From positions 1 to 32,386 of the forward strand of contig JACPTD010000016.1 in assembly GCA_016192955.1 (NCBI GenBank): DNA of 32,386 bases, in the 5' to 3' direction. The stretch comes from Candidatus Woesearchaeota archaeon (lineage in GTDB: Archaea; Nanobdellota; Nanobdellia; Woesearchaeales; GW2011-AR4). A model generated the notes under the pieces. That model was not told the origin of the DNA, ran no database searches, and saw only the letters and a program-made list of their open reading frames with translations. Position numbers and translations under genes: made by a program. Positions 2 through 26,341 of this stretch are shown here, in pieces. Every line of letters starts with the position of its first letter. Positions within the stretch are counted from its first letter, which is position 1.

Positions 2-1615
2 TGTCTGGTTTCAAATATACCTGTTAACCTGAATTATTGCAACCCAAGCTTAAATCAAGTATGTGTAAATGGCAACAGCTTATGCGGCGTATCAGCTGTT
101 CAACAGCCTTCTTGCACTGACACTGACAATGGTTTGAATTATAATGTTAGAGGCACTGTTACACAAGGAAGTTTAAGCTACACAGACTATTGCGAACTTG
201 GCAACAATCTATTTGAAGGTTATTGTGCAGCTAATGGCAGCATAATAACAAACTACCTGTATGTATGCCCAAATGGTTGCAGCGATGGCGCGTGCTTGAG
301 TGCGACACCTGTAATAAATCAAACTAGTCAAACGCCACCGCTTCCAGATTTGATAGTCTTAAATATTTCCATTACACCTTCTAATCCAACAAATCAAGAT
401 AGAGTAACATATAGAATAACTGTTAAAAATATTGGAACAGCCGCTTCAGGAATATCCACGTTATGGTTTAATAATTCACGAGTGATTGGAAGATTATTTC
501 CTGATAGTATTGCGCCTGGTTCCACCTATACGACAGTTGATCTGGGAGGGAGTAGTTTAGCAGGAACGAGAACTATTACTGTAATAGCTGATGCAGACAA
601 TACAATTCCAGAGTTAAATGAAAACAACAATGTGTTAGTTAAAACCTATACAGTGGCACAAGCACCTCCAGCCCTTAACGTACCAGATAATATACGAATA
701 ACAACGAGTGCGGAACTTAGAAGTGCACCTTTTATCTACGGTAACTATATTGTATGGCGTGACTTTAGAGATGGCAACTACGAAATTTATATGTACGATT
801 TGTCAACCAACCAGGAAAGGCGGCTGATAACAGGTACAATAATCCAATCTGTTGCCAGTATATACGAGAATAATATCTTACTGCAGCGCTTAAATAATAC
901 CAACAATAGTATTTATCTATACGACCTATCCACAAACCAGGAAAGGCGTATAACACTTGGCAATCATGACCACCGTTCTCCTTATATTTACGGTAATAAA
1001 ATTCTTTGGGAGGATTACAGAAAATTTGACTATAGGCTTGGGGGCATAAAAAATACAGACATCTACATGTATGACTTGTCAACAAACCAGGAAAGGCAGA
1101 TAACAACAAATCCTTTAGGCCAATATTACCCCCATATATACGGTGATAAGATAGTATGGTATGACCTAGTAGATGTAATAAATTCAATTTATGACATCTA
1201 CATGTACGATTTGTCAACCAACCAGGAAAGGCGGATAATAGCAAGGACAGGGTCGTCTCCTTCCATCTACGGTGATAAGATAGTATGGTCTGACAACAGA
1301 AATGGTATCCTGAATTCCGACATATACATGTATGACCTGTCAACAAACCAGGAAAGGCAGATAACAACAAATAATGCGGGCCAGGGTGGTGCCATTATAT
1401 ATGCTGATAAGATTGTATGGACAGACAATAGAAATGGCAACTACGACATATACATGTATGACCTGTCAACAAACCAGGAAAGGCAGATAACAACGGATGC
1501 AGCAGCTCAAGTTAGCCCTTCTATCTACGGCAATAAAATTGTATGGGCGGATAGTAGAAACGGTCACACTTTGCCTTTCTGGAAATATGATATTTACATG
1601 GCAACAATCTCCTAA
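2..1615 (+). CDS. Cell-surface protein, 5'-truncated: Cys-rich CxDTDxG repeat, CARDB domain and TIGR04275-like beta-propeller repeats
   Basis: The frame is open from position 2 (CLVSN...SCTDTDNGLNY), so the start lies outside the window. Cys motif YTDYC...CPNGCSDGAC; CARDB signature PDLIV...VKNIG...ADADNTIPELNENNN; six YDLSTNQER repeats plus a terminal DIYM blade. Confidence 0.85.
   Translation, partial: CLVSNIPVNLNYCNPSLNQVCVNGNSLCGVSAVQQPSCTDTDNGLNYNVRGTVTQGSLSYTDYCELGNNLFEGYCAANGSIITNYLYVCPNGCSDGACLSATPVINQTSQTPPLPDLIVLNISITPSNPTNQDRVTYRITVKNIGTAASGISTLWFNNSRVIGRLFPDSIAPGSTYTTVDLGGSSLAGTRTITVIADADNTIPELNENNNVLVKTYTVAQAPPALNVPDNIRITTSAELRSAPFIYGNYIVWRDFRDGNYEIYMYDLSTNQERRLITGTIIQSVASIYENNILLQRLNNTNNSIYLYDLSTNQERRITLGNHDHRSPYIYGNKILWEDYRKFDYRLGGIKNTDIYMYDLSTNQERQITTNPLGQYYPHIYGDKIVWYDLVDVINSIYDIYMYDLSTNQERRIIARTGSSPSIYGDKIVWSDNRNGILNSDIYMYDLSTNQERQITTNNAGQGGAIIYADKIVWTDNRNGNYDIYMYDLSTNQERQITTDAAAQVSPSIYGNKIVWADSRNGHTLPFWKYDIYMATIS
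1318..1494 (+). repeat. Identical 51-nt intragenic direct repeats (1318-1368 and 1444-1494)
   Basis: CGACATATACATGTATGACCTGTCAACAAACCAGGAAAGGCAGATAACAAC occurs twice, with near-copies at about 790, 920, 1059 and 1193. Confidence 0.9.
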
Positions 1616-1690
1616 ATAATTTTTATTAACGGATAATACGAAAAATTTATATCCACACTCTTTACTTAATTCTTTAAAAAGAGGCATTAT

Positions 1691-1732
1691 AGCAAATCAC
1701 ACAAATATTTGAGCATAAAAATGTGATTTGCT
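1691..1732. repeat. Inverted repeat, 11-bp arms and 20-nt spacer; possible diverged copy of palindromic module A
   Basis: AGCAAATCACA (1691-1701) / TGTGATTTGCT (1722-1732). The interior CACACAAATATTTGAGCATA resembles CACAAAAATAATTGGGTATA at 21175. Confidence 0.65.
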
Positions 1733-1781
1733 TATTACGAACGAGCAGGTATTGCTCAATTAATTATGCGAGTGAGTATAG

Positions 1782-2874
1782 ATGAATTCTAAATCCCAAG
1801 CATGGTATATGGACTTTGCAATAGGGTTGTTGCTTTTTACATTCACTTTGGTTGTTTATTTCAGCTATACCAATAATTTTCAAAGGCAGGAAAAGGACAA
1901 CCTTGACGTCCTGCTAAATGACGCAAAAGCAGTGTCAACTTCCCTTGCCCTGCCAGGCTACCCTCTGGACTGGAATAATGACACTGTGCTGAGGATAGGC
2001 ATATCAAACGATCAGGAAATCAACGCGACAAAAGTAAAGCAATTCAAGCAGTATAACTATACAATGAGCAAGGCAAAGTTTGGCACGCAGTATGATTATG
2101 TTGTGTTTTTTACAAACGACAAGGGCGAGGTTTTAAACATAAACAGCGTATGTGCTGTTGGCTACCCGCTTGTTAATGCAAGCTACAACATCAAAGCGGC
2201 TTATTATTATCAGGATCCTTCTGATTCTTTCCTAAAGGATTTTATGAACAATACTCTTAATGCTGATATTTATTTTAAAAACGAGAATAATGACATTTAT
2301 AAGCTGGAAGGCTTAATGAGCAACATAAGCAAATACAGCCTAATAGTGTTCGAGCATCCTTTGCTGAGCGGCGGAGACTACAATGAATACTATAGGGAAC
2401 TCAATAATTACACGGCAAGCGGCGGATTTTTTTTAATCAGCGGGGAACTGGCAACAAGCCAAGGAAGAGTTCTTATCTTTAAATGTTAAGGATGAGATTA
2501 CATTCAACCAGTATTATTATGTGACAAACAGCACATCGCTTCCTATAGAAGAAGACCCGGATGATGATGATTACAACCCATTTCCTGCAGCTGAATTCAA
2601 GCTAATTGCCTCATTTAACAAGACTCCGGAGGATTATGCAATCGCCACATGGCATTATGGCAATGGAACTGCATATTTTTTCAGCGATTTCGATGTTACA
2701 GAATTTTCCGGAAATTTTTTACAGGTTGTGGAGGGATTGGCAACAAGCTTTATCGAAGGCACGTGCAATCCCATCAATGCCTCTGTTATAAACAAGAAAA
2801 AGCTTGTCAAGACCGAGCGCTATTTGAATTATAAGTCAAAAATCGCCAAGATGGTGGTTTATTTATGGCAATGA
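1782..2874 (+). pseudogene. Minor pilin-like protein with class III signal peptide, split into two frames (1782-2489 and about 2461-2874)
   Basis: N-terminus MNSKS-QAWYMDF plus a hydrophobic helix. The +1 frame reads KEEFLSLNVKDEITFNQYYYVTN from 2461 and ends ERYLNY...KMVVYLWQ, a beta-strand end like that of the next pilin-like gene. The break may be an assembly artefact. Confidence 0.7.
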
Positions 2875-5621
2875 AAAAAGGGATATTTTTCACTATCGAT
2901 GCTTTGCTTGCATCAGGCATTATCATAATTGCAATTTTGCTTATTTCAAATTTTTACTCTGTGGAGCAGCAAAAAGCCAATGTGAACTACGCTTCCCAGG
3001 ACTTGGTCAGGGTTTTTTCAACAATGACTGTCGGCGAGTCAGACAATGAATACGCAAGGGCGCTGATTGCGCAGGGACAGGTAACAAACATTAACAACAC
3101 AATATTTGAGCAGGTTGGGGATTTCTGGGCGAACAACGACATAGTGCTTGCAAAAAACCTGATAACAAACCTCAGCGATGCCATAATCCCAGGCAATTAC
3201 GGCTTCAGCGTGCTTGTAAACGGGGAGGAAATCTACTCAAGGAACATCCCTGTAAAAAGGGTGCTTGTTTCGTCAAGAAAAATAGTAAGCGGCATAGCAA
3301 AGGCAAAGCCTACAGAAGGGTTTACCGCAAGGGCTTTGCTGAGCGGGATAAAAAGCAAGAAGACAAACGCTTATGCTTACTTCGGAGGCTATGAAGGCGA
3401 TGGCAATTTAACAAAAAAACTGACTTTGCCGAATGATGTGATTTCTTTCAACAGCTCTTATCTTGAGGTTGATGCCGGCGGGAATTTCAACCTTTATATT
3501 AATGGATTTTTTTCAGGCAGCTACGCAAAAGGCTCAGGCGGCGGTGGCGATATGCGCGCTGACAAGTGGAATTTAAGCGATGATTATCTTGCAAATTTCA
3601 GAGCAGGGGAAAATAAGATAAACATAAATTTCACATCAGGCGGCAGCTATATTGCAGGCGGATTTTTGAGAGTGGCTTACATCACTTCTTCCCTTAATGA
3701 CACGCAGACTCCTGGCTATGAAAAATACATGTTTCCCGGCATTGAAGGGACTATAAACCTGTACTCGTCAGTTTATGTGCCAAACTCATTAAACGATATG
3801 AGCGTATTTCTCAATTATTCAAGCAATTACACAATGTTCCTGAGGCTTGGAAACACGACAATATACGAGAATAACACAAATGGCACAAAAACAGAGATAA
3901 CCTTGGCAAACTCAACATTGAGGGATTTGATTGACTATTCAATATTCAACCAAAATACCATTCCATTGAGAATGGGCTTGGCAAATGCAACAAGCCTCAG
4001 CGGAACAGCAGACGCTGTGCTGGTCAGCGATGTGAGCGGGAGCATGGAGTTTTGCTCGCAGACAAGCAGTTGGAGCGGTCCTTTTTCTCAAGGTTATTCT
4101 CCAACAAGAGGGTGTATATACAATGGTATGTGGCGTGGTAATGAGTTATGGTATTGGGTTTACTACAATGGAAACCCAACAGGTTACGCAGAAGCAAATC
4201 AAACAAACTGGAATAATGGATTGAACGATTTATGTGGATGCAGATGGAATACAAATTGTGGGACTGACGTTACTAAATTATCAATCTACAAAACTGCTGC
4301 TGATAATTTTGTTAACATTTCCTTGAATATAACCGGAAATAAGGTAGGCCTAGTTGATTTTAGCGAAACAAATCCGTGGCCGGTTTATATAAACACCTGT
4401 TCAAGACGTTCTTCCACCACAACAATCTTTCCAGATTCAATTGCAAGAACAAGTGACTTAACAAACAGCAAATCTCAGATAAGCGACATGATTAATGCAA
4501 CAGAAAGTTGGTGGGGAACTTGCACATGCTGCGGGATAAATAAAGCTGTTGAAATGCTAAACTCTCAGAGTGGTAGCCAAAGAGAAAAATACATAATTCT
4601 AATGAGCGATGGTGAAGCAAATGTACAATGTTCACAACAGTCAAACGGCACAGCAATCAGGGATGCTGTCCAATCAGCATGGGACGCATGCAACCAAGGG
4701 ATTAGCGTTTATTCCATCGCTTTCGGTGCTGACGCAGACACTGCTACAATGCAGAGGATGAACTGCAGCGGAGGAAGATATTATAATGCAGTTGATGCGT
4801 CTAATCTTCAACAAGCTTATAATGAGATCGCAGGCGAGATTAACAAATTAAGCTATAATGAACAAACCATTAATACTTCGAATTTAGCAAAATCTTTTGT
4901 CCATCCAAGCTCCTACATAGAATTTAACTACACGGCTTCAGATACACAATTCAACAAGTTGCCTTTATCTTTTGAGACCGACAGGTTTGAGAACAACATT
5001 TCGACTGGAACATTGACAATTTATGCAAATACTTCTGTTTTAGATGCAAAAGTAACCTCTTACTCAGGAAGCAAATGGACTGACAATTTGGTTGTCAATA
5101 GCAACACTATTTACAGATTAAGCGATTACGGAGATGATTACCAAATCCTAGGCGATCCATTTGCAGTAAACATTCCAATAAGCAGCATAAACCAAGGAGC
5201 AAACAGCATAACAATAAGCACAGGATTAAACTCAACATACACAACAAACGGCTCAAGCGATGATAGGGTTATCTACACATTATTATTGAATGGGTTTTCT
5301 GATTACAGCGCTGTTGTCGCCAAGTCTGACGGATGCTCGTGGAATGTGGCTTTTGAAGACGAGACATTCTCAACAATAAAAATTCCCGCAGGATACGCTG
5401 GAAGCGATGCTTGCAGCTATACGAGCGCAACAAAAACTTACGATTCAAATGACGCCTTAGACAGCACGGTTTATCAATTGTTCAATAACTTAGACCTTGA
5501 CAAGGACGGAAAGCTCGAGGTAAAAATAGACGAGAACAGCCTTGATTTCAGCACTTTGACAATATCAAAAGTCCCTTCATTGTGGGGGCCTGCAATAATA
5601 GAGATAAGGGTGTGGGAGTAA
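2871..5621 (+). CDS. Large minor pilin / putative tip adhesin with a von Willebrand A domain
   Basis: Class III-like signal MKKG-IFFTIDA plus a hydrophobic helix. MIDAS DVSGS, GTCTCCGI and LMSDGEAN motifs. ATG 2871 overlaps the upstream TGA (ATGA coupling). Confidence 0.85.
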   Translation: MKKGIFFTIDALLASGIIIIAILLISNFYSVEQQKANVNYASQDLVRVFSTMTVGESDNEYARALIAQGQVTNINNTIFEQVGDFWANNDIVLAKNLITNLSDAIIPGNYGFSVLVNGEEIYSRNIPVKRVLVSSRKIVSGIAKAKPTEGFTARALLSGIKSKKTNAYAYFGGYEGDGNLTKKLTLPNDVISFNSSYLEVDAGGNFNLYINGFFSGSYAKGSGGGGDMRADKWNLSDDYLANFRAGENKININFTSGGSYIAGGFLRVAYITSSLNDTQTPGYEKYMFPGIEGTINLYSSVYVPNSLNDMSVFLNYSSNYTMFLRLGNTTIYENNTNGTKTEITLANSTLRDLIDYSIFNQNTIPLRMGLANATSLSGTADAVLVSDVSGSMEFCSQTSSWSGPFSQGYSPTRGCIYNGMWRGNELWYWVYYNGNPTGYAEANQTNWNNGLNDLCGCRWNTNCGTDVTKLSIYKTAADNFVNISLNITGNKVGLVDFSETNPWPVYINTCSRRSSTTTIFPDSIARTSDLTNSKSQISDMINATESWWGTCTCCGINKAVEMLNSQSGSQREKYIILMSDGEANVQCSQQSNGTAIRDAVQSAWDACNQGISVYSIAFGADADTATMQRMNCSGGRYYNAVDASNLQQAYNEIAGEINKLSYNEQTINTSNLAKSFVHPSSYIEFNYTASDTQFNKLPLSFETDRFENNISTGTLTIYANTSVLDAKVTSYSGSKWTDNLVVNSNTIYRLSDYGDDYQILGDPFAVNIPISSINQGANSITISTGLNSTYTTNGSSDDRVIYTLLLNGFSDYSAVVAKSDGCSWNVAFEDETFSTIKIPAGYAGSDACSYTSATKTYDSNDALDSTVYQLFNNLDLDKDGKLEVKIDENSLDFSTLTISKVPSLWGPAIIEIRVWE

Positions 5622-13960: not shown

Positions 13961-14015
13961 TTAGTTATTCAATTTGTATTCAAAATAAAATTATTTTAAA
14001 AAGAAGGTGAAATTA

Positions 14016-14465
14016 ATGAAAATTACCACACAACATAAAAAAGCCCAAGCTGCAATGGAGTTCCTGATGACTTATGGCTGGGCCATACTTGTCGTGCTTG
14101 CTGCAATCGCTGCTCTTGCTTATTTTGGCGTTTTAAGCCCAGAGAAATTTTTGCCAGAGAAATGCATTTTGCAGCCTGGAATCGCTTGTGTCAGCCACAA
14201 GGTAGAGCCTTCAAAAGTCACGCTTGTCATATCAAACGGCATGGGAAGGACAATGATAATAAACAGCATAACTGTAGGGAGCTGCAGCGGCACATTCAAC
14301 CAGACATTGCTTAGCGGAACTGATTATACATTTGTAGTAGGGGGAGCATGCAACAACGGCATCTCAAAGGACAAATTCAAGGGGGATATAACCTTAGCTT
14401 ACACTGAAAAAGACACTAACCTTACCAAAACAGCATTTGGCAATCTTAACACAAAAATTGAGTGA
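14016..14465 (+). CDS. Archaeal type IV pilin 1
   Basis: KKA-QAAMEFLMTYGWAILVVL class III signal with Glu at +5; RBS GAAGGTGA upstream of ATG 14016. Confidence 0.9.
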   Translation: MKITTQHKKAQAAMEFLMTYGWAILVVLAAIAALAYFGVLSPEKFLPEKCILQPGIACVSHKVEPSKVTLVISNGMGRTMIINSITVGSCSGTFNQTLLSGTDYTFVVGGACNNGISKDKFKGDITLAYTEKDTNLTKTAFGNLNTKIE

Positions 14466-14492
14466 GCATTGGCAAAAAAGAAGGTGAAAATT

Positions 14493-14960
14493 ATGAGCAA
14501 AAAATCACAGGCAGCATTGGAATTCTTAATGACTTATGGCTGGGCCATACTTGTTGTTCTTGTTGCAGTAGGCGCCTTGGCTTATTTTGGGGTTTTAAGC
14601 CCTGACAAGTTTTTGCCTGCCAAATGCATTTTGCAGCCTGGAATTGCATGCTTAGACCACAAAGCAACTTTGACATCGCTTGTGGTTAGAGCCCAGAATT
14701 CTGGTGGGTATGACCTAACTGTTAATAATGTAAAGGCAACTGGTTGCACATGCCAGTCAAATCCTATAGCAGGAGATTGCACTTTACTATCAATTGGAAC
14801 AACGCTTGCAAACGGAGGAGCTGCAACATATACATTAACCTGTGCAAATTTAGGCTTATCAAAGTATAATGGGCAGTTTAACATCACTTACACCACATCA
14901 ATTGATTTAGGTGGAATTCAGCACACTAATGTAGGTCAGATAACAACAAGGATAGAATAA
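14493..14960 (+). CDS. Archaeal type IV pilin 2 (paralog of pilin 1)
   Basis: KKS-QAALEFLMTYGWAILVVL; the same RBS GAAGGTGA lies upstream of ATG 14493. Confidence 0.9.
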   Translation: MSKKSQAALEFLMTYGWAILVVLVAVGALAYFGVLSPDKFLPAKCILQPGIACLDHKATLTSLVVRAQNSGGYDLTVNNVKATGCTCQSNPIAGDCTLLSIGTTLANGGAATYTLTCANLGLSKYNGQFNITYTTSIDLGGIQHTNVGQITTRIE

Positions 14961-18300: not shown

Positions 18301-20568
18301 CCGAACTGGTTAGTGCTTGCATTTACCGTCTGCCAGCCAGGTGTGCTAGCATTATAGAACTGCAGTACCGCATTAAATGGCTGTGTCAAGTTATCTGTAT
18401 AGTTTGCAAGCGCAAATAGCTTTCTTCCTTGTGCCCATGTGCCATCTCCGGCAGCAGGAACAGTTGCTGGGTCTTGTCTGCCTAAAGATGCGGTAGTATC
18501 ATACACAGAACTATTTGAAAAGTTTAAGGTTAGTAAGACAGGCGGTATCTGGTCAACTATGATTAATACAGAAGTCACATTCCTATTTGAGTTATTGCTT
18601 GCATCTACAGCTGTAACAGTTATATTCTTAGTTCCATTTGTCAATGCTGAAACTGTAACAGTGCAATTTACACCATCAGTTAAATTGCCCATGGCATTTT
18701 CACCAGTTATATTGAAGACGCTTGAGTTTGTTGCAAATCCAACAGGAAAACAAGTCAAATTTCTGCCTATGCCGCTTATAAAGAATACCCCAGCACTCAA
18801 TCCTGTATCGCCTGCAGGCACAACAGTAACATTAATGGTATTATTAATAGACATATTGATCCCTGTGCTGTTTAAGTCTGCTACTGTAAAATTAATCACA
18901 ATGGAAGTGCCTGTTGTATTAAAGATTGATACATCAGATGGAGGAGTTTGATGCCTTGTCCTGCCACCATCGTTGTTGATTAAGCTTCCATGCAATTGTA
19001 TTTCTGGAGCGCCTGTATCATTGCCAACTGTGCCTTGGGAGAAGTGACTTACAAAAGTGTATGTTTTTCCTGTTGTTAATGCAACACCATTTAATTGTGC
19101 TTTGTCACCCTCAAGCCAGCATGCACTTGCCCCCCCTACTGTTGAATTTGTAAAAATTGTATTCAACACAGCTGAATCATTATTAGCTCCAAATGCTGTT
19201 GCATTACATCGGTTAATTGCTGTGCAATTTGGGCTGCTGAAAAGGTCTGATCCTGAACAATACATATGCTTATCAAATCCAACGCCAGCAAGCTCTATGA
19301 CGCCAAATTTATATAGCACGAAGCTTGGGATGAATTTGGCAAATTCGCCTCCTGCCATTGTGGTTGCAAACCCGCTTCCTATAGCCTGAGTGACGCCTTT
19401 TTGAGCAGTTGTAGTGAGATTTGCATTGCTTAAATTTCCTAGTTGGTTTTCATCAACTCTCAAGCCAACAATGTATATCTTAGTTGTTGCGCTAGTGTTA
19501 AATATAAAAGTGTAGTTTCGAGCTAGCGGGTCAAAAAAGCTCGCTGCAGCAGGCGTGCCTGCGCCTCCTGTAGAATCTGCAGCTGAAGGGATTTCTGTTC
19601 CATTTCCAAATGTTATGTTTATTCCTACTGAGCCTGCTGAGCCAAAGCTTTGCAATGTCTCTTCGAATTGTGTTATATTGCCGCCTGTAACCAAAAAGTC
19701 ATAGGAACCTATGCATCTTGAATTGCCAGCGCTGTCATTTGCGCAGAATATAACGCTATGAGCTCCCGGACCTCTCCAAGTGCTCGAAAAATTTAGTGAA
19801 ACGTTGATTGTATACGTCTCCATTACGTTGATATTGGTGCTGGTAATGGACCTCAGCATTGATATATTTTTAACCGAGTTGCTTTGGCCAATGCTAAATT
19901 CCGCGTTGACACTGCTATTCTCCAATTGGCCGATTGTAGAAAATGTTGACGCTAAAAGTGATTGGCCATCCTGTGAAATTTCCAGTTGATCCTCCCCATA
20001 AACCATTACTTGTCAGAGTCGCATTTGGCGTTAGGGCAACCAATCTTGGCGGGGCTGTGTCAATATAAATTGAGCGATTCCCCGAGAATGTCAATCCACT
20101 AGCAACGCTTGCATTAGTAAAGTTATAACACGCAATTGCAAACGTATAATTTCCATCTGCGCTGAATGTATGATTCACATAACTTATTGTCTGATTGGAT
20201 ATATTAGCGTCTTCAGTTGGTGAATCTATAGTAATATTTTTTGCAATATCCCATTTTATGACATTGGTAGTGCTGTTTATCCACAGACTGCAATTCGACC
20301 TATTTTCATGTAAATCTGCTTGCCCTGCTGCATCACCAAAACTCCAAGTGGCATTATATGTAATGTTAACCTTTCTAGAAGCTGTGTTATTAAAAATTGT
20401 AAAATTTAATCCATGTGGGGTGCCAGGTGATATAATATTAAGAGTCATTGCCTCGACATAGACTACACTTAAAACAAAAATCAAAACTATAGAAGCTAAC
20501 AGCACTAAATTTACCTTGCCCTCTCGAGAATTAAAAAAACTACTGTAACCCTCTTTTTTCATCATCAC
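15368..20568 (-). pseudogene. Giant S-layer-like surface glycoprotein with PGF-pre-PGF domain and C-terminal TM anchor, split into three ORFs (20568-19915, 20006-16644, 16642-15368)
   Basis: A signal peptide occurs only in the first ORF (...VVYVEA). Ig-like D-x-x-P repeats and dense N-x-S/T sequons run throughout. ATTPGFSTFAIG, a PPEV linker, a TM helix and a KKK tail occur only in the last ORF. The gene may be intact in vivo if the breaks are assembly errors. Confidence 0.75.
16067..16102. repeat. Perfect 18-nt tandem duplication encoding DAAAAA twice
   Basis: TGCGGCGGCGGCTGCGTC at 16067-16084 and 16085-16102. Confidence 0.9.
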
Positions 20569-20627
20569 TCCTCTTATATATGTATAATATGTGGCAAATA
20601 ATTAAAGATTATTGGTTTGGCAGCATA

Positions 20628-20639
20628 TATTTAAATCTT
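20628..20639 (-). promoter_or_regulatory. BRE/TATA promoter of the S-layer-like gene
   Basis: Reverse complement reads AAGATTTAAATA about 60 nt upstream of the start; a GAGGAG RBS lies next to the start codons. Confidence 0.55.
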
Positions 20640-20817
20640 TTGATTTATAACATAACCTGCATGTAAAAATTCTAGCTAATAACGTAAAATTTGAAACACA
20701 AAACCCCCTTTGGATTTCAAAAAATCAGAGAATATTTAAACTTTGTTATATTGTATATCCTGCAATACATATATTTAACAAAATGTTTTTATAAACATAC
20801 TTCAACCGAATTTTAAG

Positions 20818-21162
20818 ATGTTGGTCAGGAACACAACAAAAGGCAGGGTTGTCCAGCGCGATGCCGAGCTAATTGAGGATATTCTATCAAAATTTATCGG
20901 CTTGATGTTCTCTGCAAAACAAAAAAAGGCTTTAATTTTCAAATTTGACAAGGAAAAGGTGATTGCACTGCATATGCTTTTTGTTTTTTACCCGATAGAT
21001 GTTTTATTTCTGGACAAAGGCAAGATTGTCGTGGATAAGAAAGAGAATTTCAAGCCATTTGCATTTTACAATTCCAGGAAAAAGGCGATGTACGCAGTTG
21101 AATTGCAGAATGAAGCTATAAAAAAGTCTAAAACAGGAGTAGGCGACAAAATTGAATTTTGA
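20818..21162 (+). CDS. DUF192 family protein
   Basis: GLMF...ALIF...LHMLFVFYPIDVLFLD...YAVEL...GDKIEF pattern. Confidence 0.9.
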   Translation: MLVRNTTKGRVVQRDAELIEDILSKFIGLMFSAKQKKALIFKFDKEKVIALHMLFVFYPIDVLFLDKGKIVVDKKENFKPFAFYNSRKKAMYAVELQNEAIKKSKTGVGDKIEF

Positions 21163-21171
21163 TTTATAGTC

Positions 21172-21260
21172 AGCCACAAAAATAATTGGGTATAGTTGTG
21201 GCTTCCTAATAGTCGACAACAAATCATAAATAACACCTAATTACTTTGTTAGTCGACTAT
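21172..21260. repeat. Composite palindromic element: module A (21172-21203) plus module B (21209-21260)
   Basis: AGCCACAA-N16-TTGTGGCT and ATAGTCGACAACAAA-N21-TTTGTTAGTCGACTAT; homologous to 25124-25215. Confidence 0.8.
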
Positions 21261-21588
21261 ATTTCATATTTTTGAATAAAATTGATATAAAGCATGCCAG
21301 CAAGTACACCAAAACCAAATTCAACGCAAAAGCCACCGGGTTGAACAAAAAGCCCCCAAACCTGCCAAAATATTCTCCAAGAAAAAATTTATTTGCGTTG
21401 CTAGAAGCCCCTTCGATGCCCCCTGTTATCATGTATTGAAAAGGAAATCCGTGGGCGTTGTAGCAAAATGCGAAGAAAAAGCTTACTGCGCAAACGCTTT
21501 CTTTTGCAAAATAGGAGTATACAATGCCTATAAACAAAAATATTAATATTTTAAGGCCAGATGGTTTTAAGAACTCTTTTACATTCAT
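21241..21588 (-). CDS. Small hypothetical membrane protein (two or more TM segments)
   Basis: 115 aa with hydrophobic N- and C-terminal helices and a central GFPF motif. Confidence 0.7.
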   Translation of the reverse strand: MNVKEFLKPSGLKILIFLFIGIVYSYFAKESVCAVSFFFAFCYNAHGFPFQYMITGGIEGASSNANKFFLGEYFGRFGGFLFNPVAFALNLVLVYLLACFISILFKNMKYSRLTK

Positions 21589-21644
21589 AAAAAATGAAGA
21601 ATATCTTTTCTATTTAAAATTTTGCAATAAGCAAATCAACAACC

Positions 21645-21652
21645 TTTAAATA
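21645..21652 (+). promoter_or_regulatory. TATA box of the tRNA-Trp gene
   Basis: TTTAAATA ends 25 nt before the mature tRNA 5' end. Confidence 0.65.
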
Positions 21653-21677
21653 ACTAAAACAAATTCTCTATGTTGGC

Positions 21678-21840
21678 GGGGACGTCGTATAAAGGAGCAA
21701 TCCGTACAACCTGGTTATTATCGCCGGCTCCAGTATTGGAGCGTTGAGCTTTTAGCGATGAAAGAAAATTGGCGATACCGGCTGATCTTTGCAAGAAATT
21801 GCTAAGAGTCGAAATCAGAGTTCAAATCTCTGCGTCCCCA
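21678..21840 (+). tRNA. trnW: tRNA-Trp(CCA) with three introns (21693-21709 at 15/16; 21734-21776 at 37/38; 21785-21813 at 45/46)
   Basis: Spliced sequence GGGGACG TC GTAT AACCTGGTTA TTAT C GCCGG CTCCAGA CCGGC TGAT CAGAG TTCAAAT CTCTG CGTCCCC A folds as a cloverleaf. Anticodon at 21730-21732; no encoded CCA tail. Confidence 0.92.
21734..21776 (+). ncRNA. Putative minimal intron-encoded box C/D guide RNA for Cm34 of tRNA-Trp
   Basis: TTGGAGC (21736-21742) is complementary to GCTCCAG. D-like box TTGA at 21744-21747 and C-like box GCGATGA at 21755-21761. The fifth nt upstream of the D box pairs with C34. Confidence 0.6.
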
Positions 21841-21867
21841 TTTTCTCCATACAAAAAATCAGCAAAT

Positions 21868-23928
21868 CTAATAATAAACTTCCTGTTCTTTGTTTGTTTC
21901 TTCGCTTAAATCCTTATTATTGCCTTGCAAGTATTTAATAACCCCGAAAGATAGGCCTATTAAAGCAAGTATAATGGCAAATCCTATCAAAATCGCTTTT
22001 AAAATGGCTTTGAGACTTGCGCCCAGCAATCCTCTTTTTGCCACAATGACATCCCCTTTTAAATGAATCTGCGCTAATGCCTTTTCATTGTCCTTGATTG
22101 TAACAACAAACGTCTGCTCGCCTATCGCGTTCCCTTTTGAGGAAGCATACAGGTATATTGTCTTTGACTCTTTTGGCTTTATGATAAAGGCGTTTGACTC
22201 CTTCAATCTCAAATCAGCCCAGTTTGCGCCATCCATAAGCAAGGTGTAAGTTTTTGCATCATTCCCCTCATTTGTTAAAATCAGAGGGTATATTACCTCG
22301 CTGCCGTCATTTTTCATGTTTTGTCTTAATAGGGGCGCATTTATCACAAGCCTGTCACTCACAAACTGCCTGGCTTGATCACTCTTGCCTAGAATAAAAA
22401 CAGGAAACTCCTTGACTTCGCTCTCGCTTCCAGACTGGGAAACTATCTCCAGCCTTAGGGTGTAAGTTCCTGTCGGCACATTATCAGAAATTTTCAGCGC
22501 AAAATCTTCTTTTGCTTCAGGAAGCTTGCTGTTTTTAATGTTGCCTAAAAACTTTGTTGATGAAACTTCCAGCTCCGGTATGCTGATCTTTGCGCTTATG
22601 CCGTCAAGGGGAACAACTCCAAGATTTTTAAAATTCAACGTCACAACAAGCGATTTGCCTGCTTCTGCATTGCCCTCAGGGCTTAGTAAAACGCTGCTTA
22701 TAATGAAAGGAAATTTCTTCTGGCTTATTTTCAGGCCGTAAAGCTTCTCTTCTGAATTTCCCTCTGCATCAATAACTTTTACCCTGAGCTTGAAGCTGTT
22801 TTGCTCAAATTGTCCTATCAAAGGCAGCTCAAGGTCTTTAACTGTGTTTTGTCCATCGAGCACGTCAAATGTTGTCGTGGCATCTGCAACAACATCCCCA
22901 TTTTCAAATGCAAGCACAGCGTCAACATGGGCATCCTCAACATCCTCAAGAGATGTAAGCCTTACTTTCAGGTTGAGCTTTTTTTCGCCTTGGTCTATTA
23001 CGACAAAATTATTCTCGCCTTCTGCCAGAATCTTATTTTCAACCTCTACATTGTCTATCGAAACGTCCAAAGCCCTGCCGCCTGCGCCGCCAGCTGTTCC
23101 ATCCCTTCCACGCATTTGCATGCCGTATGTCTGCTGAACAAAATCCCCTTCAGCATCAATAATTTTAACGGTTAATTCAAAAGAATTGCTTTGCCTCAGC
23201 CTGTCTATAAGCTCCAGCCTGAGCCCTCTTGCGAGGGTATTGCCGTCTTGCAGATTGAAATTTGGAGACGAGTCTGCAATAACATTGCCGCTCCTCAAGT
23301 CCCTAAGCACAGCTTCGACACGGGCATTTTCCAGGTCTTCCAGAGCAGTAAATTCAACCAAAACATCAAAATTATCGCTTTCATCAATGAAATTTGGACT
23401 CGATTGCGCAACAACCCTGCCATTTACCCTTACCCTGTCTATTGAGACGTCAAAGGTGCCCCTTCCAATCCTTCCGCCTGTGAACCTTAAGCCGTAATTT
23501 TGCGTCCTTGTATTGCCATCTGCGCCAACAACTCTTATATCAAGCCTAAAATCGCTCTGCCTTCTGAGCGAATCTATAAGACGAAGGCTTAACGCCACTA
23601 CGCTGCTTTGGTTTGTCCTCAGCAGGAAAGTGCCGCTTGAATCGGAAATTGTATTGCCGGTGCTTGAGTCTGTTAAAACAGCCTCGACATGCACATTTGA
23701 AATATCATTTAGAGCTGTGAGGCTTACAACGACATCCAAATCGTTTGTGTCTTGCAGAAAGTTTGTCCTGTCCCGTGCAAAAGTATTGCCATTTACCCTT
23801 ACCCTGTCTATTGAGACGTCAGATGCGGAAAATGAGTCAGATGAAGCAGCAAGGGCATAGGGCGCACTGCTAAATAAAATTCCAAAAGCCAGCAAAAATG
23901 CCGTCAAAGCAAAAATCTTTTTATTCAT
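21868..23928 (-). CDS. Membrane-anchored surface protein: three tandem ~120-aa repeats, a CARDB/COG1361-like region and a C-terminal TM helix
   Basis: Signal peptide ending ALA; DVSIDRVRVNG / DVSIDNVEVEN repeats; NLGVVP...GTYTLRLEI; C-terminal hydrophobic helix. An identical 35-nt repeat occurs at 23418-23452 and 23787-23821. Confidence 0.8.
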   Translation of the reverse strand: MNKKIFALTAFLLAFGILFSSAPYALAASSDSFSASDVSIDRVRVNGNTFARDRTNFLQDTNDLDVVVSLTALNDISNVHVEAVLTDSSTGNTISDSSGTFLLRTNQSSVVALSLRLIDSLRRQSDFRLDIRVVGADGNTRTQNYGLRFTGGRIGRGTFDVSIDRVRVNGRVVAQSSPNFIDESDNFDVLVEFTALEDLENARVEAVLRDLRSGNVIADSSPNFNLQDGNTLARGLRLELIDRLRQSNSFELTVKIIDAEGDFVQQTYGMQMRGRDGTAGGAGGRALDVSIDNVEVENKILAEGENNFVVIDQGEKKLNLKVRLTSLEDVEDAHVDAVLAFENGDVVADATTTFDVLDGQNTVKDLELPLIGQFEQNSFKLRVKVIDAEGNSEEKLYGLKISQKKFPFIISSVLLSPEGNAEAGKSLVVTLNFKNLGVVPLDGISAKISIPELEVSSTKFLGNIKNSKLPEAKEDFALKISDNVPTGTYTLRLEIVSQSGSESEVKEFPVFILGKSDQARQFVSDRLVINAPLLRQNMKNDGSEVIYPLILTNEGNDAKTYTLLMDGANWADLRLKESNAFIIKPKESKTIYLYASSKGNAIGEQTFVVTIKDNEKALAQIHLKGDVIVAKRGLLGASLKAILKAILIGFAIILALIGLSFGVIKYLQGNNKDLSEETNKEQEVYY

Positions 23929-24052
23929 TATGCTAAAGCGGGAATGTGTTGCCCTTTTTAAAGTTTTCGTTATTGGAGAGTAGGTACAAATTTAGTCATT
24001 TTAGAATGTGCCTTGCATTAGGTATATAAACAATAAATAAACACCAAAATCC

Positions 24053-25183
24053 ATGATAGCAATAGTCGGGGCTGGTCCTGCAGGCTCTTATCTTGCTTAT
24101 CTGCTTGCAAGGCAGGGCAAAGATGTGACAATATTGGAAGAGCATGACAGGATTGGGAGCCCTGTCCAATGCACAGGCATTGTCACCCATTCAATTGAGA
24201 AATTCTTCAAGTTAAAAAATGAGGTTATAGCAAAAAGGCTTGACAAAGTGGTTGTTGTGGGCAAAAGCAGCAAAATAAGCGTAAATGTTGATGAGATTGT
24301 CATGTGGCGCGACAAATTTGACATGTTTGTTGCTGAAATGGCCCAGGATGCAGGAGCCAAGATTCTGCTGAATCACCGATTCATTGGCTTTGATGGAAAG
24401 CAGTCAATAAAAGTAAAAGACAGGAAAAACAGCAAGCTGAAAGAAATAAAGGCAGATATAATTGTGGGGGCTGACGGCCCTTATTCTGCTGTTGCAAATG
24501 CTGCTGGAATGGGCTCAAATTCAAAAAATTATATTGGCATGCAGGCTAAAATAAGGCTAAAAATGGACACAACTGCATTTGAAACTTATTTTGGCATTGA
24601 TTTTCCAAACTTTTTCGGATGGGTTGTTCCTGAAAGCGAAGACACGGTAAGGCTTGGAATAGGCTGCTTTGAAAATACCAAGGAATATTTCTATAAATTC
24701 CTTAAAATGAGAACAGGCAAAAAAGACATTTTATGCTGGGAAAGCGGCTTAATTCCTTTATACAACCCAAAAAAAACAATACAGAAAGGCAATGTATATT
24801 TAATCGGCGACGCCGCAACCCATGTTAAAGCCACAACAGGAGGAGGCATAATACCATCGCTTAAGGCAGCGCACACATTATGCGACTGCATTGCCAGCAA
24901 CAAAAACTACAACAGGGAATTCAAAAGGCAGTCTGGAAAAGAACTCCTTTTGCATTTAAGGCTAAGAAATATCCTAAACAAGTTCTCTGACAATGACTAT
25001 GGCAAGCTACTGAGCCTGATGAGCCAGGAAAAGGTTAAAAAAATATTGAAAAAGTATGACAGGGACACGCCAATACCCTTGCTGGCTAATCTGCTGCTTA
25101 AAGAGCCAAGGTTTTTATTATTGCCAACCACAACAATACTTAAAAATTTTTGTGGTTGGAAAGGTAGCCGAACAACAAAGTAA
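24053..25183 (+). CDS. Geranylgeranyl reductase family FAD-dependent oxidoreductase
   Basis: GAGPAG, PVQCTG, RDKFD, VGADG, FGWVVP and GDAA...TGGGI motifs. Confidence 0.9.
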   Translation: MIAIVGAGPAGSYLAYLLARQGKDVTILEEHDRIGSPVQCTGIVTHSIEKFFKLKNEVIAKRLDKVVVVGKSSKISVNVDEIVMWRDKFDMFVAEMAQDAGAKILLNHRFIGFDGKQSIKVKDRKNSKLKEIKADIIVGADGPYSAVANAAGMGSNSKNYIGMQAKIRLKMDTTAFETYFGIDFPNFFGWVVPESEDTVRLGIGCFENTKEYFYKFLKMRTGKKDILCWESGLIPLYNPKKTIQKGNVYLIGDAATHVKATTGGGIIPSLKAAHTLCDCIASNKNYNREFKRQSGKELLLHLRLRNILNKFSDNDYGKLLSLMSQEKVKKILKKYDRDTPIPLLANLLLKEPRFLLLPTTTILKNFCGWKGSRTTK

Positions 25184-25215
25184 TTATGCATTATCAATTG
25201 TTTGTTGTTCGGCTA
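25124..25215. repeat. Composite palindromic element: module A (25124-25159) plus module B (25165-25215)
   Basis: CCAACCACAA-N16-TTGTGGTTGG and TAGCCGAACAACAAA-N21-TTTGTTGTTCGGCTA (perfect 15-bp arms). Confidence 0.85.
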
Positions 25216-25318
25216 TATTTGCAAAAATGCTTTTTGCTTAAAGCTTAACTTGAACCTTTGCGTTTTTCCTCTATAAGCACTTCTTGATTTCTGACATATA
25301 TTCTATACCACATAAAAG

Positions 25319-25350
25319 TTTATATACTTAAGATATCTATAGATATCTTA
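25319..25350 (+). promoter_or_regulatory. TATA box plus a perfect 22-bp palindromic operator
   Basis: TTTATATA at 25319-25326; TAAGATATCTATAGATATCTTA at 25329-25350, one nt before the ATG. Confidence 0.7.
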
Positions 25351-25351
25351 T

Positions 25352-25513
25352 ATGAAAAAAATAGAATTAAAAAACGAAACTTTGGTGTTAGTAGACAAAG
25401 AGATTCTCGGTTTTATCGAGAAAACAGTAACTCCGTTCGGGACGAGCGCCAAAGTGGACTGCCCACGAAAGTATATTGGCAAACGAGCTTATCTTATTAT
25501 TTGTAAAAAGTAG
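25352..25513 (+). CDS. DUF2080 family (putative transposon-associated, AbrB-like) small protein, 53 aa, absent from the ORF track
   Basis: Manual translation MKKIELKNETLVLVDKEILGFIEKTVTPFGTSAKVDCPRKYIGKRAYLIICKK; EKxVTPFGTSAKVDxPxKYIGKRAY is the DUF2080 pattern. Confidence 0.85.
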   Translation: MKKIELKNETLVLVDKEILGFIEKTVTPFGTSAKVDCPRKYIGKRAYLIICKK

Positions 25514-25636
25514 AGGTAAACTTGTCTTTGCCGATAAAAGATGTTCCAGTTAGATTCAAGGCTCTTCTTTCTTTTTACAAGAAGTGTTTTACAAGACCAC
25601 TAAGTAAGATTTTTATATTACAACAAAAATTAGGTT

Positions 25637-26341
25637 ATGATGGTTGAATTAACAGTTGTGATTCCTACTTTCAATGAAGAAAAGCAGATCAAAAAGACTA
25701 TGCAGGGAGTTTATGCCTATATAAAAAAACTGAGATTAAATCCTGAAATATTGGTTATTGACGATAGCACAGACAAAACATACAGTATTTTGAAAAGATT
25801 AATGAAGAGGTATAATAACCTTAAGGTAGAACATAGGACCTATCAAAGAGGTGTAGGCTCAGCAATTAGGTTAGGTATTGAAAAAGCAAAAGGAAGTTAT
25901 ATAATAGTTTATATGGCAGATGCTCCAAATGATGCAAAATATTTTCCTGCTATACTTAAAAAATTGAGAGAAGGATATGATATAGTGCAAACTTCACGAT
26001 TCTTCACGGAATCCAGAATTATAGGCTATCCTTTTAAGAAAAGAATATGCAATTGGTTATGTAATAACTTTATTAAGGTTTTATTTTTTGAGTTTAAATT
26101 AAGAGATTTCAGTAGCTTGTTCAAGGGTTTCAATAAAAAAAGAGTAAAAGCCTTAGGTTTACGAGCAAATGAATTTGACCTTGGGCTCGAGATAGTGCTT
26201 AAGGCAATACGAAAGAACTATAGAATTGTTGAGTTACCGGTCGATTGGAAAGAGAGAGAAGGTGGTGAGAGCAAGCTGAAGCTGTCGAAATATGCAAGGC
26301 ATTATTTCATGAGTGTTATGAAAATACGGCTTACCTATTGA
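25637..26341 (+). CDS. GT2 glycosyltransferase (DPM1-like)
   Basis: VVIPTFNEE, LVIDDSTDKT, GVGSAIRLG, YMADA and REGGESK motifs. Confidence 0.9.
   Translation: MMVELTVVIPTFNEEKQIKKTMQGVYAYIKKLRLNPEILVIDDSTDKTYSILKRLMKRYNNLKVEHRTYQRGVGSAIRLGIEKAKGSYIIVYMADAPNDAKYFPAILKKLREGYDIVQTSRFFTESRIIGYPFKKRICNWLCNNFIKVLFFEFKLRDFSSLFKGFNKKRVKALGLRANEFDLGLEIVLKAIRKNYRIVELPVDWKEREGGESKLKLSKYARHYFMSVMKIRLTY

Follow-up and report, generated by a model that had tools for sequence, protein, structure and literature searches.

The stretch of DNA analysed here (the window) is positions 1-32,386 of contig JACPTD010000016.1 (C16), from a Candidatus Woesearchaeota archaeon, and at two loci about 4 kb apart it carries a pair of adjoining hairpins, A and B. 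The two are copies of a single bounded element, about 95 nt long, in which hairpin A is followed by hairpin B and the whole is flanked by TA; they are not shuffled modules. The element is a non-autonomous transposable element, that is, a miniature inverted-repeat transposable element (MITE), with imperfect inverted ends (TAG/TAC...CTA), and it represents a new MITE family. We are highly confident that it is mobile, or was formerly mobile, and that the loops of its hairpins have flipped in situ. The window belongs to an assembly of 1.2 Mb in 130 contigs, 84% complete (G000 below; relatives carry labels of the form G0xx). The genus is covered by 43 genomes, all metagenome-assembled genomes (MAGs) of Candidatus Woesearchaeota, which are 62-99% complete and in which repeats are often unassembled.

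An earlier reading of the window (the sequence-only reading) had placed hairpins A and B at both 21172-21260 and 25124-25215, and sequence and fold bear this out. The true units are a few bases longer, 21167-21261 and 25121-25217, with a TA before and a TA at the end of each. Hairpin A, whose stem had been given as 8, has a core stem of 8-10 bp and a stem of 13 positions when the outer part is counted; its 16-nt loop was correctly described. In hairpin B, a 15-bp stem closes a 21-nt loop. At both loci two adjoining hairpins are predicted on either strand, with Z scores of -3.9 to -7.2, and none of 200 dinucleotide shuffles per locus folds equally well. Copy 1 (21167-21261, plus strand, subfamily 1) scores 82.6 bits with nhmmer and 108.2 bits with the covariance model, and is delimited by sequence, fold, and sharp boundaries in alignments. 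The TA at its left junction (21165-21166) would be the target, or the left copy of a TA duplication. Its hairpin A (21167-21208) has a TAG/CTA outer stem, a TC.TC internal loop, a AGCCACAA/TTGTGGCT core, and the 16-nt loop; its hairpin B (21209-21260) has the 15-bp stem with one bulge and the 21-nt loop, and the terminal TA is at 21260-21261. Copy 2 (25121-25217, plus strand, subfamily 2) has its left TA at 25119-25120, the last two bases of a TTA codon in an oxidoreductase gene. In its hairpin A (25121-25159) the core stem CCAACCACAA/TTGTGGTTGG is present and the outer pairs have decayed; hairpin B (25165-25215) has a perfect 15-bp stem and is followed by the terminal TA at 25216-25217.

The two loci also pair with each other within the window. 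Among the longest 25 of its 1406 inverted-repeat pairs, the pair 21216-21265/25159-25208 (50 nt, 76% complementary) is first by length and the pair 21171-21201/25128-25158 (31 nt, 81%) is fourth. The compensatory changes that had been noted in the arms are real. In an alignment of 24 family members, 96.4% of 550 cells are paired, and only 32-52% are when the partners are slid in the same alignment. Six of the 23 stem pairs are altered on both sides, and the subfamilies are distinguished by paired stem changes.

The boundaries of the unit are sharp. When 20, and then 16, copies were aligned with their flanks, identity began at TAT and stopped at CTATA, and the DNA outside was unrelated. The layout is TA, then T(A/T)(G/C)(T/C)C, hairpin A, 0-1 nt, and hairpin B ending in CTA, followed by TA, with 95 nt between the TAs. 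The order A then B and the same termini are found in all 24 aligned full copies. By BLAST, only three copies are detectable in the window's own assembly, the third being C3:8441-8561, 94% identical to 21141-21261. A covariance model (R1) also led to a further group in the same genome, subfamily 4, which shares its termini, left arm, and linker with the others and differs from them in the stem of B. One of its nine full copies is in the window at 1688-1780 (minus strand; 47.2 bits with the subfamily-4 nhmmer profile), with TA at both ends, a decayed hairpin A, and a perfect hairpin B. In total, G000 has about 16 copies or variants: three of subfamilies 1-2, and nine full and four long or variant copies of subfamily 4. 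R1 matches 31 of the 43 genomes of the genus (E<=1e-3), most often G003 (39 matches), G053 (28), G004 (16), G008 (15), and G001 (13). The earlier claim of a mobile REP/MITE-like family of dispersed hairpins (REP, repetitive extragenic palindromic) is supported by these further copies. Beyond the genus, 5 of 120 genomes from other genera of the order match R1 at E<=1e-6, and two of these were confirmed as full copies by nhmmer. Among 40 relatives examined, full copies were present in many members of the genus, and 16 other genera gave only weak matches (best E 0.004). In G003, twelve copies show 0-3 differences over 97 positions, and six have the identical R1 score of 113.5 bits; this near-identity indicates a recent burst. 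A scan of window positions 20500-26000 against Rfam 15 found no family at its gathering score. The sole match was to the Plastid-psbA-2 3'UTR RNA model (23.4 bits, where the gathering score is 55.8; E 0.5).

Besides full copies, the family has longer and shorter forms. In G053, all contigs of which were searched, there are about 50 copies or fragments, including four-hairpin forms, 46-nt 'terminal-only' forms, and three subfamily-4 copies with identical scores. The 46-nt forms (G053:C2:6714-6759 and C7:211414-211459) have a single hairpin, in which the left arm of A is fused to the right end of B, and are 'terminal-only' deletion derivatives. Long variants with further small hairpins between A and B occur in subfamily 4 of G000, in G053, and in others: examples are G000:C12:1297-1439 and C112:6745-6943, G004:C17, G022:C27, and several in G053 (e.g., C5:130056-130215). 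The extra hairpins begin directly after the linker AATA and have the stems TGTCGAAAAT/ATTTTCGA, CTCGAAAACC/GGTTTTC, and CAAAAATTTCA/TGAAATTTTTG; they may be a second, still smaller hairpin element that nests at TA. In G053, subfamily-2 copies at C1:48756, C1:94714, and C6:62121 (minus strand) are themselves nested in a larger palindromic repeat, present at three loci at least and bounded by TATAGAGAACTTTGAAT...ATTCAAAGTTCTCTATA.

The clearest record of an insertion is that of copy 2. The open reading frame (ORF) at 24053-25183 (plus strand) encodes a FAD-dependent oxidoreductase (with matches to Pfam FAD_binding_3 and related families). The element supplies the final 21 codons (25121-25183); the frame crosses hairpin A and stops in the loop of B. 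Matches to orthologues end at residues 355-364 of 376, the exception being G013 (residue 373), which has the insertion in common. The element is at this site in G000 and G013, and in none of the 26 other orthologues, all of which end in ...EPRF(L/F)..(S/A/T)K..F.*. Excision of 25121-25217 from the window restores ...RFLLFAKMLFA*, a C-terminus of the same type. The orphaned native 3' end is still present just after the element, at 25218-25241 (plus strand; TTT GCA AAA ATG CTT TTT GCT TAA, or FAKMLFA*). The insertion has therefore truncated the gene, which lost its last seven codons and gained a tail of 21. The empty allele is also seen in contigs from three metagenome runs of one study, which join 25116 to 25222 without the element. 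In groundwater metagenomes, bins over the element are 10-50 times deeper than the flanking DNA. Two further copies, in G003:C29 and G004:C8, have no counterpart in the orthologous intergenic regions of G000, which are too diverged for the junctions to be placed at the base level. The oxidoreductase orthologues, these two insertions, and the metagenome contigs together provide the presence/absence differences among relatives that the sequence-only reading had proposed as a check.

Copy 1 starts 4 nt past the stop codon of a DUF192 gene (20818-21162, plus strand; Pfam PF02643, E 4e-15, the match reaching the last residue), and the orthologous site in G001 (G001:C1, with a homologous upstream gene end) also has a copy. 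At such orthologous sites, about 25% diverged, the hairpins are retained. The last 22 bases of the DUF192 gene and the four bases after it (21141-21166, plus strand) are also found upstream of the copy at G000:C3:8467-8561, as a duplicate at C3:8441-8466; BLAST aligns C16:21141-21261 with C3:8441-8561 at 94.2% identity over 121 nt. The 26-nt stretch is native to the window, because the Pfam match runs to the final residue of DUF192. At C3 the duplicated 26 nt supply the last seven codons and the stop of an 1857-aa ORF. Neither of the transposition models considered below predicts this duplicate of the DUF192 3' end.

The sequence-only reading had gone further and taken A and B for independently mobile units, assembled in varying order like the REP mosaics of bacteria (BIMEs, bacterial interspersed mosaic elements), with B-A at one window locus and A-B at the other. 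That order holds only if the spacers are allowed to define orientation. The B spacers of the two loci do agree better when one is reversed (14/21, as had been reported, against 7/21 direct), as do the A spacers (11/16 against 8/16), but the termini, the linker, and the arms run collinearly, A then B, at both loci. The copy in G013:C32 makes clear what has changed. It is at the same site in the same gene as copy 2, with flanks 80% identical over 400 nt, and its loops match those of copy 2 as reverse complements (B 20/21, A 14/16) rather than directly (8/21 and 9/16). The G013 loop orientation is common to 22 of the 24 aligned copies; in copy 2 both loops are flipped, and in G016:C26 only that of A. 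As judged from these alignments, copy 2 differs from copy 1 in that both loops are inverted in place. There is no reordering of modules, since every copy has termini, arms, and linker in the same succession. Presumably the two arms of a hairpin recombine, or template switching takes place between them, and the loop is inverted as a result. Such an exchange could also produce the apparently compensatory arm changes without selection on structure, so that the covariation becomes weaker as evidence of function. An assembly artefact is unlikely, because contigs from two samples of one study span the flipped copy 2 unchanged and assembly k-mers are longer than the arms (13-15 nt). A deep 'B-A' junction in metagenome contigs, which might have been the junction of a tandem or a circle, was traced to canonical copies mapping reversed on the flipped window copy.

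Independent mobility of A and B has thus become very improbable. Solo and tandem A hairpins do exist (G008:C39; G001), and the long variants have extra hairpin modules between A and B, both of which speak for it. However, the order of A and B and the termini are constant in all 24 aligned full copies, most of the 'solo A' matches in G053 are long A...B variants, and the B-A appearance is explained by loop inversion at the orthologous site. Assembly in the manner of REP/BIME mosaics also finds no counterpart in a gene like the REP-associated tyrosine transposases (RAYTs) flanked by the units.

The genomic context raises the question of whether the hairpins are host cis-elements, such as structures at transcript 3' ends, terminators, or protein-binding sites, spread by duplication and not by transposition. 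All 15 copies in G000 and 34 of 35 in G053 (49 of 50 together) are intergenic or at the extreme ends of genes, several of them 0-5 nt from stop codons, and the retention of the hairpins at diverged orthologous sites points the same way. However, copies flanked by co-directional genes are oriented at random with respect to them (4 co- and 4 anti-oriented in G000; 11 and 10 in G053). The sharp TA-bounded ends with unrelated flanks, the near-identical burst in G003, the truncation of the oxidoreductase gene, and the failure of any Rfam family to reach its gathering score also argue against such an origin, to which we give very little credence. Copy 1688-1780 is between a gene end (1615) and a start codon (1782) and ends 1 nt before that ATG, and therefore the promoter of the gene at 1782-2489 must be in the element or beyond it. 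The A loop of this copy gives an AT-rich TTAATTAT 15-22 nt upstream of the ATG.

How the element moves is less certain. We are evenly divided on whether the mechanism is mobilisation of the IS630 type (IS, insertion sequence). In such a scheme, a DDE transposase of the IS630/Tc1-mariner type would move the copies in trans, binding their terminal 14-16 nt and inserting them by cut-and-paste into TA, which would be duplicated. TA is to the left of the element in 65 of 65 copies and after the CTA at the right, hence on both sides, in 64 of 65 (the exception is G053:C5:47212). The left end and the reverse-complemented right end agree at 10-12 of 16 positions, TATA included, which amounts to a weak, short terminal inverted repeat. 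Transposase genes of the DDE_3 (IS630) family were found by profile search in 11 of the 43 genomes, including three places in G000. One resident of G000, at C26:2407-3464, is an IS630-like element of 1058 bp, flanked by TA (2405-3466 with the TAs), with inverted repeats of about 24 nt. The ends of subfamily 4 match its repeats at 11/16 positions on the left and 12-13/16 on the right; among the 13442 16-mers of G000 that start with TATA, 2.8% reach 11 matches and 0.14% reach 13. The burst genome, G003, also has an IS630-like element, with termini TA, TAG...CTA, TA. G047 has ends related to those of the C26 element at the termini of contigs; the oxidoreductase gene of that genome is about 90 nt from one such end.

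Several results weigh against IS630-type mobilisation. Subfamily 2, the type of the second window locus, matches the C26 ends at only 7-9/16 positions, and the repeat of the G003 IS630-like element matches the element in the first five bases only. No DDE_3 gene was found in G053 (93% complete, eight contigs; neither of two candidates passed), nor in G001, G004, G008, or G022. The C26 type of IS is detectable at the DNA level in only 3 of the 43 genomes, and its transposase in G000 is split into two ORFs (160 aa; 136-177 aa). Duplication of TA would leave the same filled and empty sites as insertion 3' of a TA by a 97-nt element with a TA of its own at the end. The two flanks differ in base preference: in subfamilies 1-3, A is at position -3 in 26 of 36 copies, as against 11 of 36 at the mirrored position (p 0.0008), and in subfamily 4, C is at -1 in 12 of 21 against 3 of 21 (p 0.009), eight such tests having been made. 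A symmetric, TA-duplicating enzyme does not predict such asymmetry. Nor does a DDE enzyme need local hairpins, which here are kept by two-sided changes and have conserved bulges and internal loops.

These same features recommend a different course, in which the element would be PATE/REP-like (PATE, palindrome-associated transposable element) and moved as single-stranded DNA by an HUH (Y1) transposase, with hairpins A and B as its left and right ends; we regard this as unlikely. Insertion would be 3' of a short oriented target ending in TA, without duplication, the element itself ending in TA, which we likewise doubt. The two local imperfect hairpins at the ends, with their covariation, and the target preference on the left flank only would fit, and the empty site is equally compatible. 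Y1_Tnp genes are present in 23 of the 43 genomes. The 46-nt 'terminal-only' derivatives and nested insertions resemble those described for haloarchaeal PATEs (PMC3119063). However, two types of resident IS200-like elements could be defined (one from G000 contig ends and L060, the other from G013:C4/G003:C122/C123), and in both the end hairpins are unrelated to those of the element and the junctions are not TA. Genomes with more Y1 matches do not have more elements: G048 has eight Y1 matches and one element match, G050 seven and none, G001 none and 13, and G022 none and 10. The feet of the hairpins are 0-3 nt from the ends, unlike the geometry of IS608, and TA on both sides is more simply a duplication. 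The strand bias that replication might leave was looked for in G053, where GC skew follows the coding strand and carries no replication signal; neighbouring copies are co-oriented in 19 of 28 pairs by hand count, which is not significant. In a broader form, the element would move strand-specifically as folded single-stranded DNA, with A and B recognised as its ends and a target read in one orientation (A-N-W-TA; in subfamily 4, ACTA) on one flank only, a proposal we consider improbable. It is doubtful, too, that the enzyme would be of the HUH type or an unrecognised one, unrelated to the resident IS200-like elements, with the flip-flop of the loops a by-product of frequent hairpin or cruciform extrusion. 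The TA...TA flanks and the IS630-like ends would then be coincidental.

Searches for a partner covered eight transposase families in sets of five element-rich genomes. None of Y1_Tnp, Cas12f1-like_TNB, OrfB_IS605, DDE_3, DEDD_Tnp_IS110, DDE_Tnp_1, rve, and Resolvase was shared by all five genomes searched for it; in G001, all seven of the families tried were missing. No transposase locus examined, whether for Y1, TnpB, or another enzyme, is bounded by the repeats; nhmmer at 11 such loci found no element except one adjacent copy. An HUH or RAYT partner flanked by the same arms, as the sequence-only reading had suggested, was thus looked for beside the repeats in vain, and an IS630-type DDE element with similar ends came to light instead. 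Two candidate partners were judged coincidental: an IS200-like element 27 nt from a copy in G013:C7, and a Y1 remnant inside an element cluster in G053:C5, which is truncated and not bounded by A...B. The want of a family common to the genomes could mean that the element is an orphan, whose enzyme is outside the profiles used or comes from an unbinned virus or plasmid, the likeness to IS630 ends being convergent or ancestral. We think this quite unlikely, since MITEs commonly outlive their partner and the MAGs are incomplete, with repeats often unassembled. A viral link is also not borne out: the 16-mer CCTAATTACTTTGTTG was found in 30 IMG/VR stretches, a number that on a rough estimate could be attained by chance, and none of the 30 contains the element.

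MITEs that duplicate TA and derive from IS630/Tc1-mariner elements include those of Sulfolobus (SM1), the Correia elements of Neisseria, and the pneumococcal RUP. Like them, the woesearchaeal element is about 100 bp long, non-coding, multi-copy, and intergenic, and folds into stable stem-loops; it has TA at both junctions, a short imperfect terminal inverted repeat, and ends that resemble a resident IS630-like element. Unlike them, its body consists of two different local hairpins and not of one end-to-end palindrome, its loops flip independently, its flank preference is asymmetric, and its candidate partner IS is absent from most copy-rich genomes. Bacterial REP/BIME sequences with their RAYT (Y1) share with it the intergenic imperfect hairpins, mosaic variants with variable linkers, and arm covariation. 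However, the element has a fixed A-then-B order, sharp TA-bounded ends, no flanked RAYT-like gene, and an archaeal host. The loop flips have a parallel in plastid non-coding DNA, where minute inversions of hairpin loops, in which the arms stay and the loop is reverse-complemented in place, mislead alignments. Here the genome and the context are different, and the inversions are inside a mobile element and independent for each hairpin (both in copy 2, only A in G016).

Among archaeal repeats, comparison can be made with the PATEs of Haloquadratum walsbyi, which derive from IS200/IS605. As described in PMC3119063, they too have near-terminal palindromes, are too short for a protein, occur as homogeneous bursts with heterogeneous relatives, and have an oriented short target at the 5' end; deletion forms of about 50 bp that are terminal-only are found, and other small repeats are often nested in them. 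However, PATE palindromes resemble those of resident IS605-type transposons, which the hairpins of the element do not, and in PATEs there are no inverted terminal repeats and a further 20-50 bp lie outside the palindrome (PMC3119063). The hairpins of the element reach its ends, and it has a weak terminal inverted repeat as well as TA...TA. SMR-A of Haloquadratum (about 110 bp, with inverted terminal repeats and no known transposase; PMC3119063) is of similar size and likewise has terminal repeats without a clear tie to a transposon. Unlike the element, whose target is TA in AT-rich intergenic DNA, SMR-A is described there as inserting into PATE palindromes without target duplication. In one census, MITEEc1_IS630 is the commonest ISfinder match, and a Woesearchaea genome is listed with 105 MITEs per Mb (PMC11602168). 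Therefore MITEs as such are not new in this lineage. Text searches of the literature found no description of the present family; the sequence supplements of PMC11602168, which may list it, were outside their scope.

Other repeats were seen alongside the element. The G000 assembly is broken by an IS200-like element that is present in multiple copies (about 940 bp; full copy in G013:C7, at L060 about 1112-2050), because of which the Y1 gene of that IS is uncalled in G000 though its ends are present. Left ends are at G000:C2:1-142, C105:1-140, C67:6672-6811, and C22:1-39, and right ends at C44:18356-18616, C10:1-141, and C106:2383-2516; the end hairpins are ATGCC-TTTGA-GGCAT and ATGCGC-TTTGA-GCGCAT. 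At G000:C22:1-157 this IS has inserted into a MITE: one of its left ends adjoins hairpin A, at the 3' arm, in a long subfamily-4 copy. Within the window, a perfect 20-nt palindrome, AAGATATCTATAGATATCTT, at 25330-25349 is just upstream of a start codon at about 25354 and may be an operator; a similar motif, TATATCTATATA, is found downstream of the C3 copy, ahead of a small antitoxin-like gene. The first ORF of the window (2-1615) has 5-6 tandem coding repeats of 126 nt at 776-1563, with 60-85% identity. Two 164-nt stretches that are 80% identical, 14037-14200 and 14499-14662, belong to neighbouring ORFs (14007-14465 and 14469-14960) that have the appearance of tandem paralogues.

Although the genomes of DPANN archaea are very small, a family of hairpin repeats has proliferated in this genus of tiny groundwater archaea. 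The repeats reshape gene ends, as in the oxidoreductase of the window, and together with multi-copy IS elements they sit at the points where assemblies break. As markers, the elements could help to tell strains apart. A practical warning comes from the loop flips: a turn of the loops alone can make palindromic repeats look as if they had been inverted or put in another order. If the single-strand reading were true, the family would represent a new hairpin-dependent mobility system in archaea, REP/PATE-like but of a new kind in DPANN.

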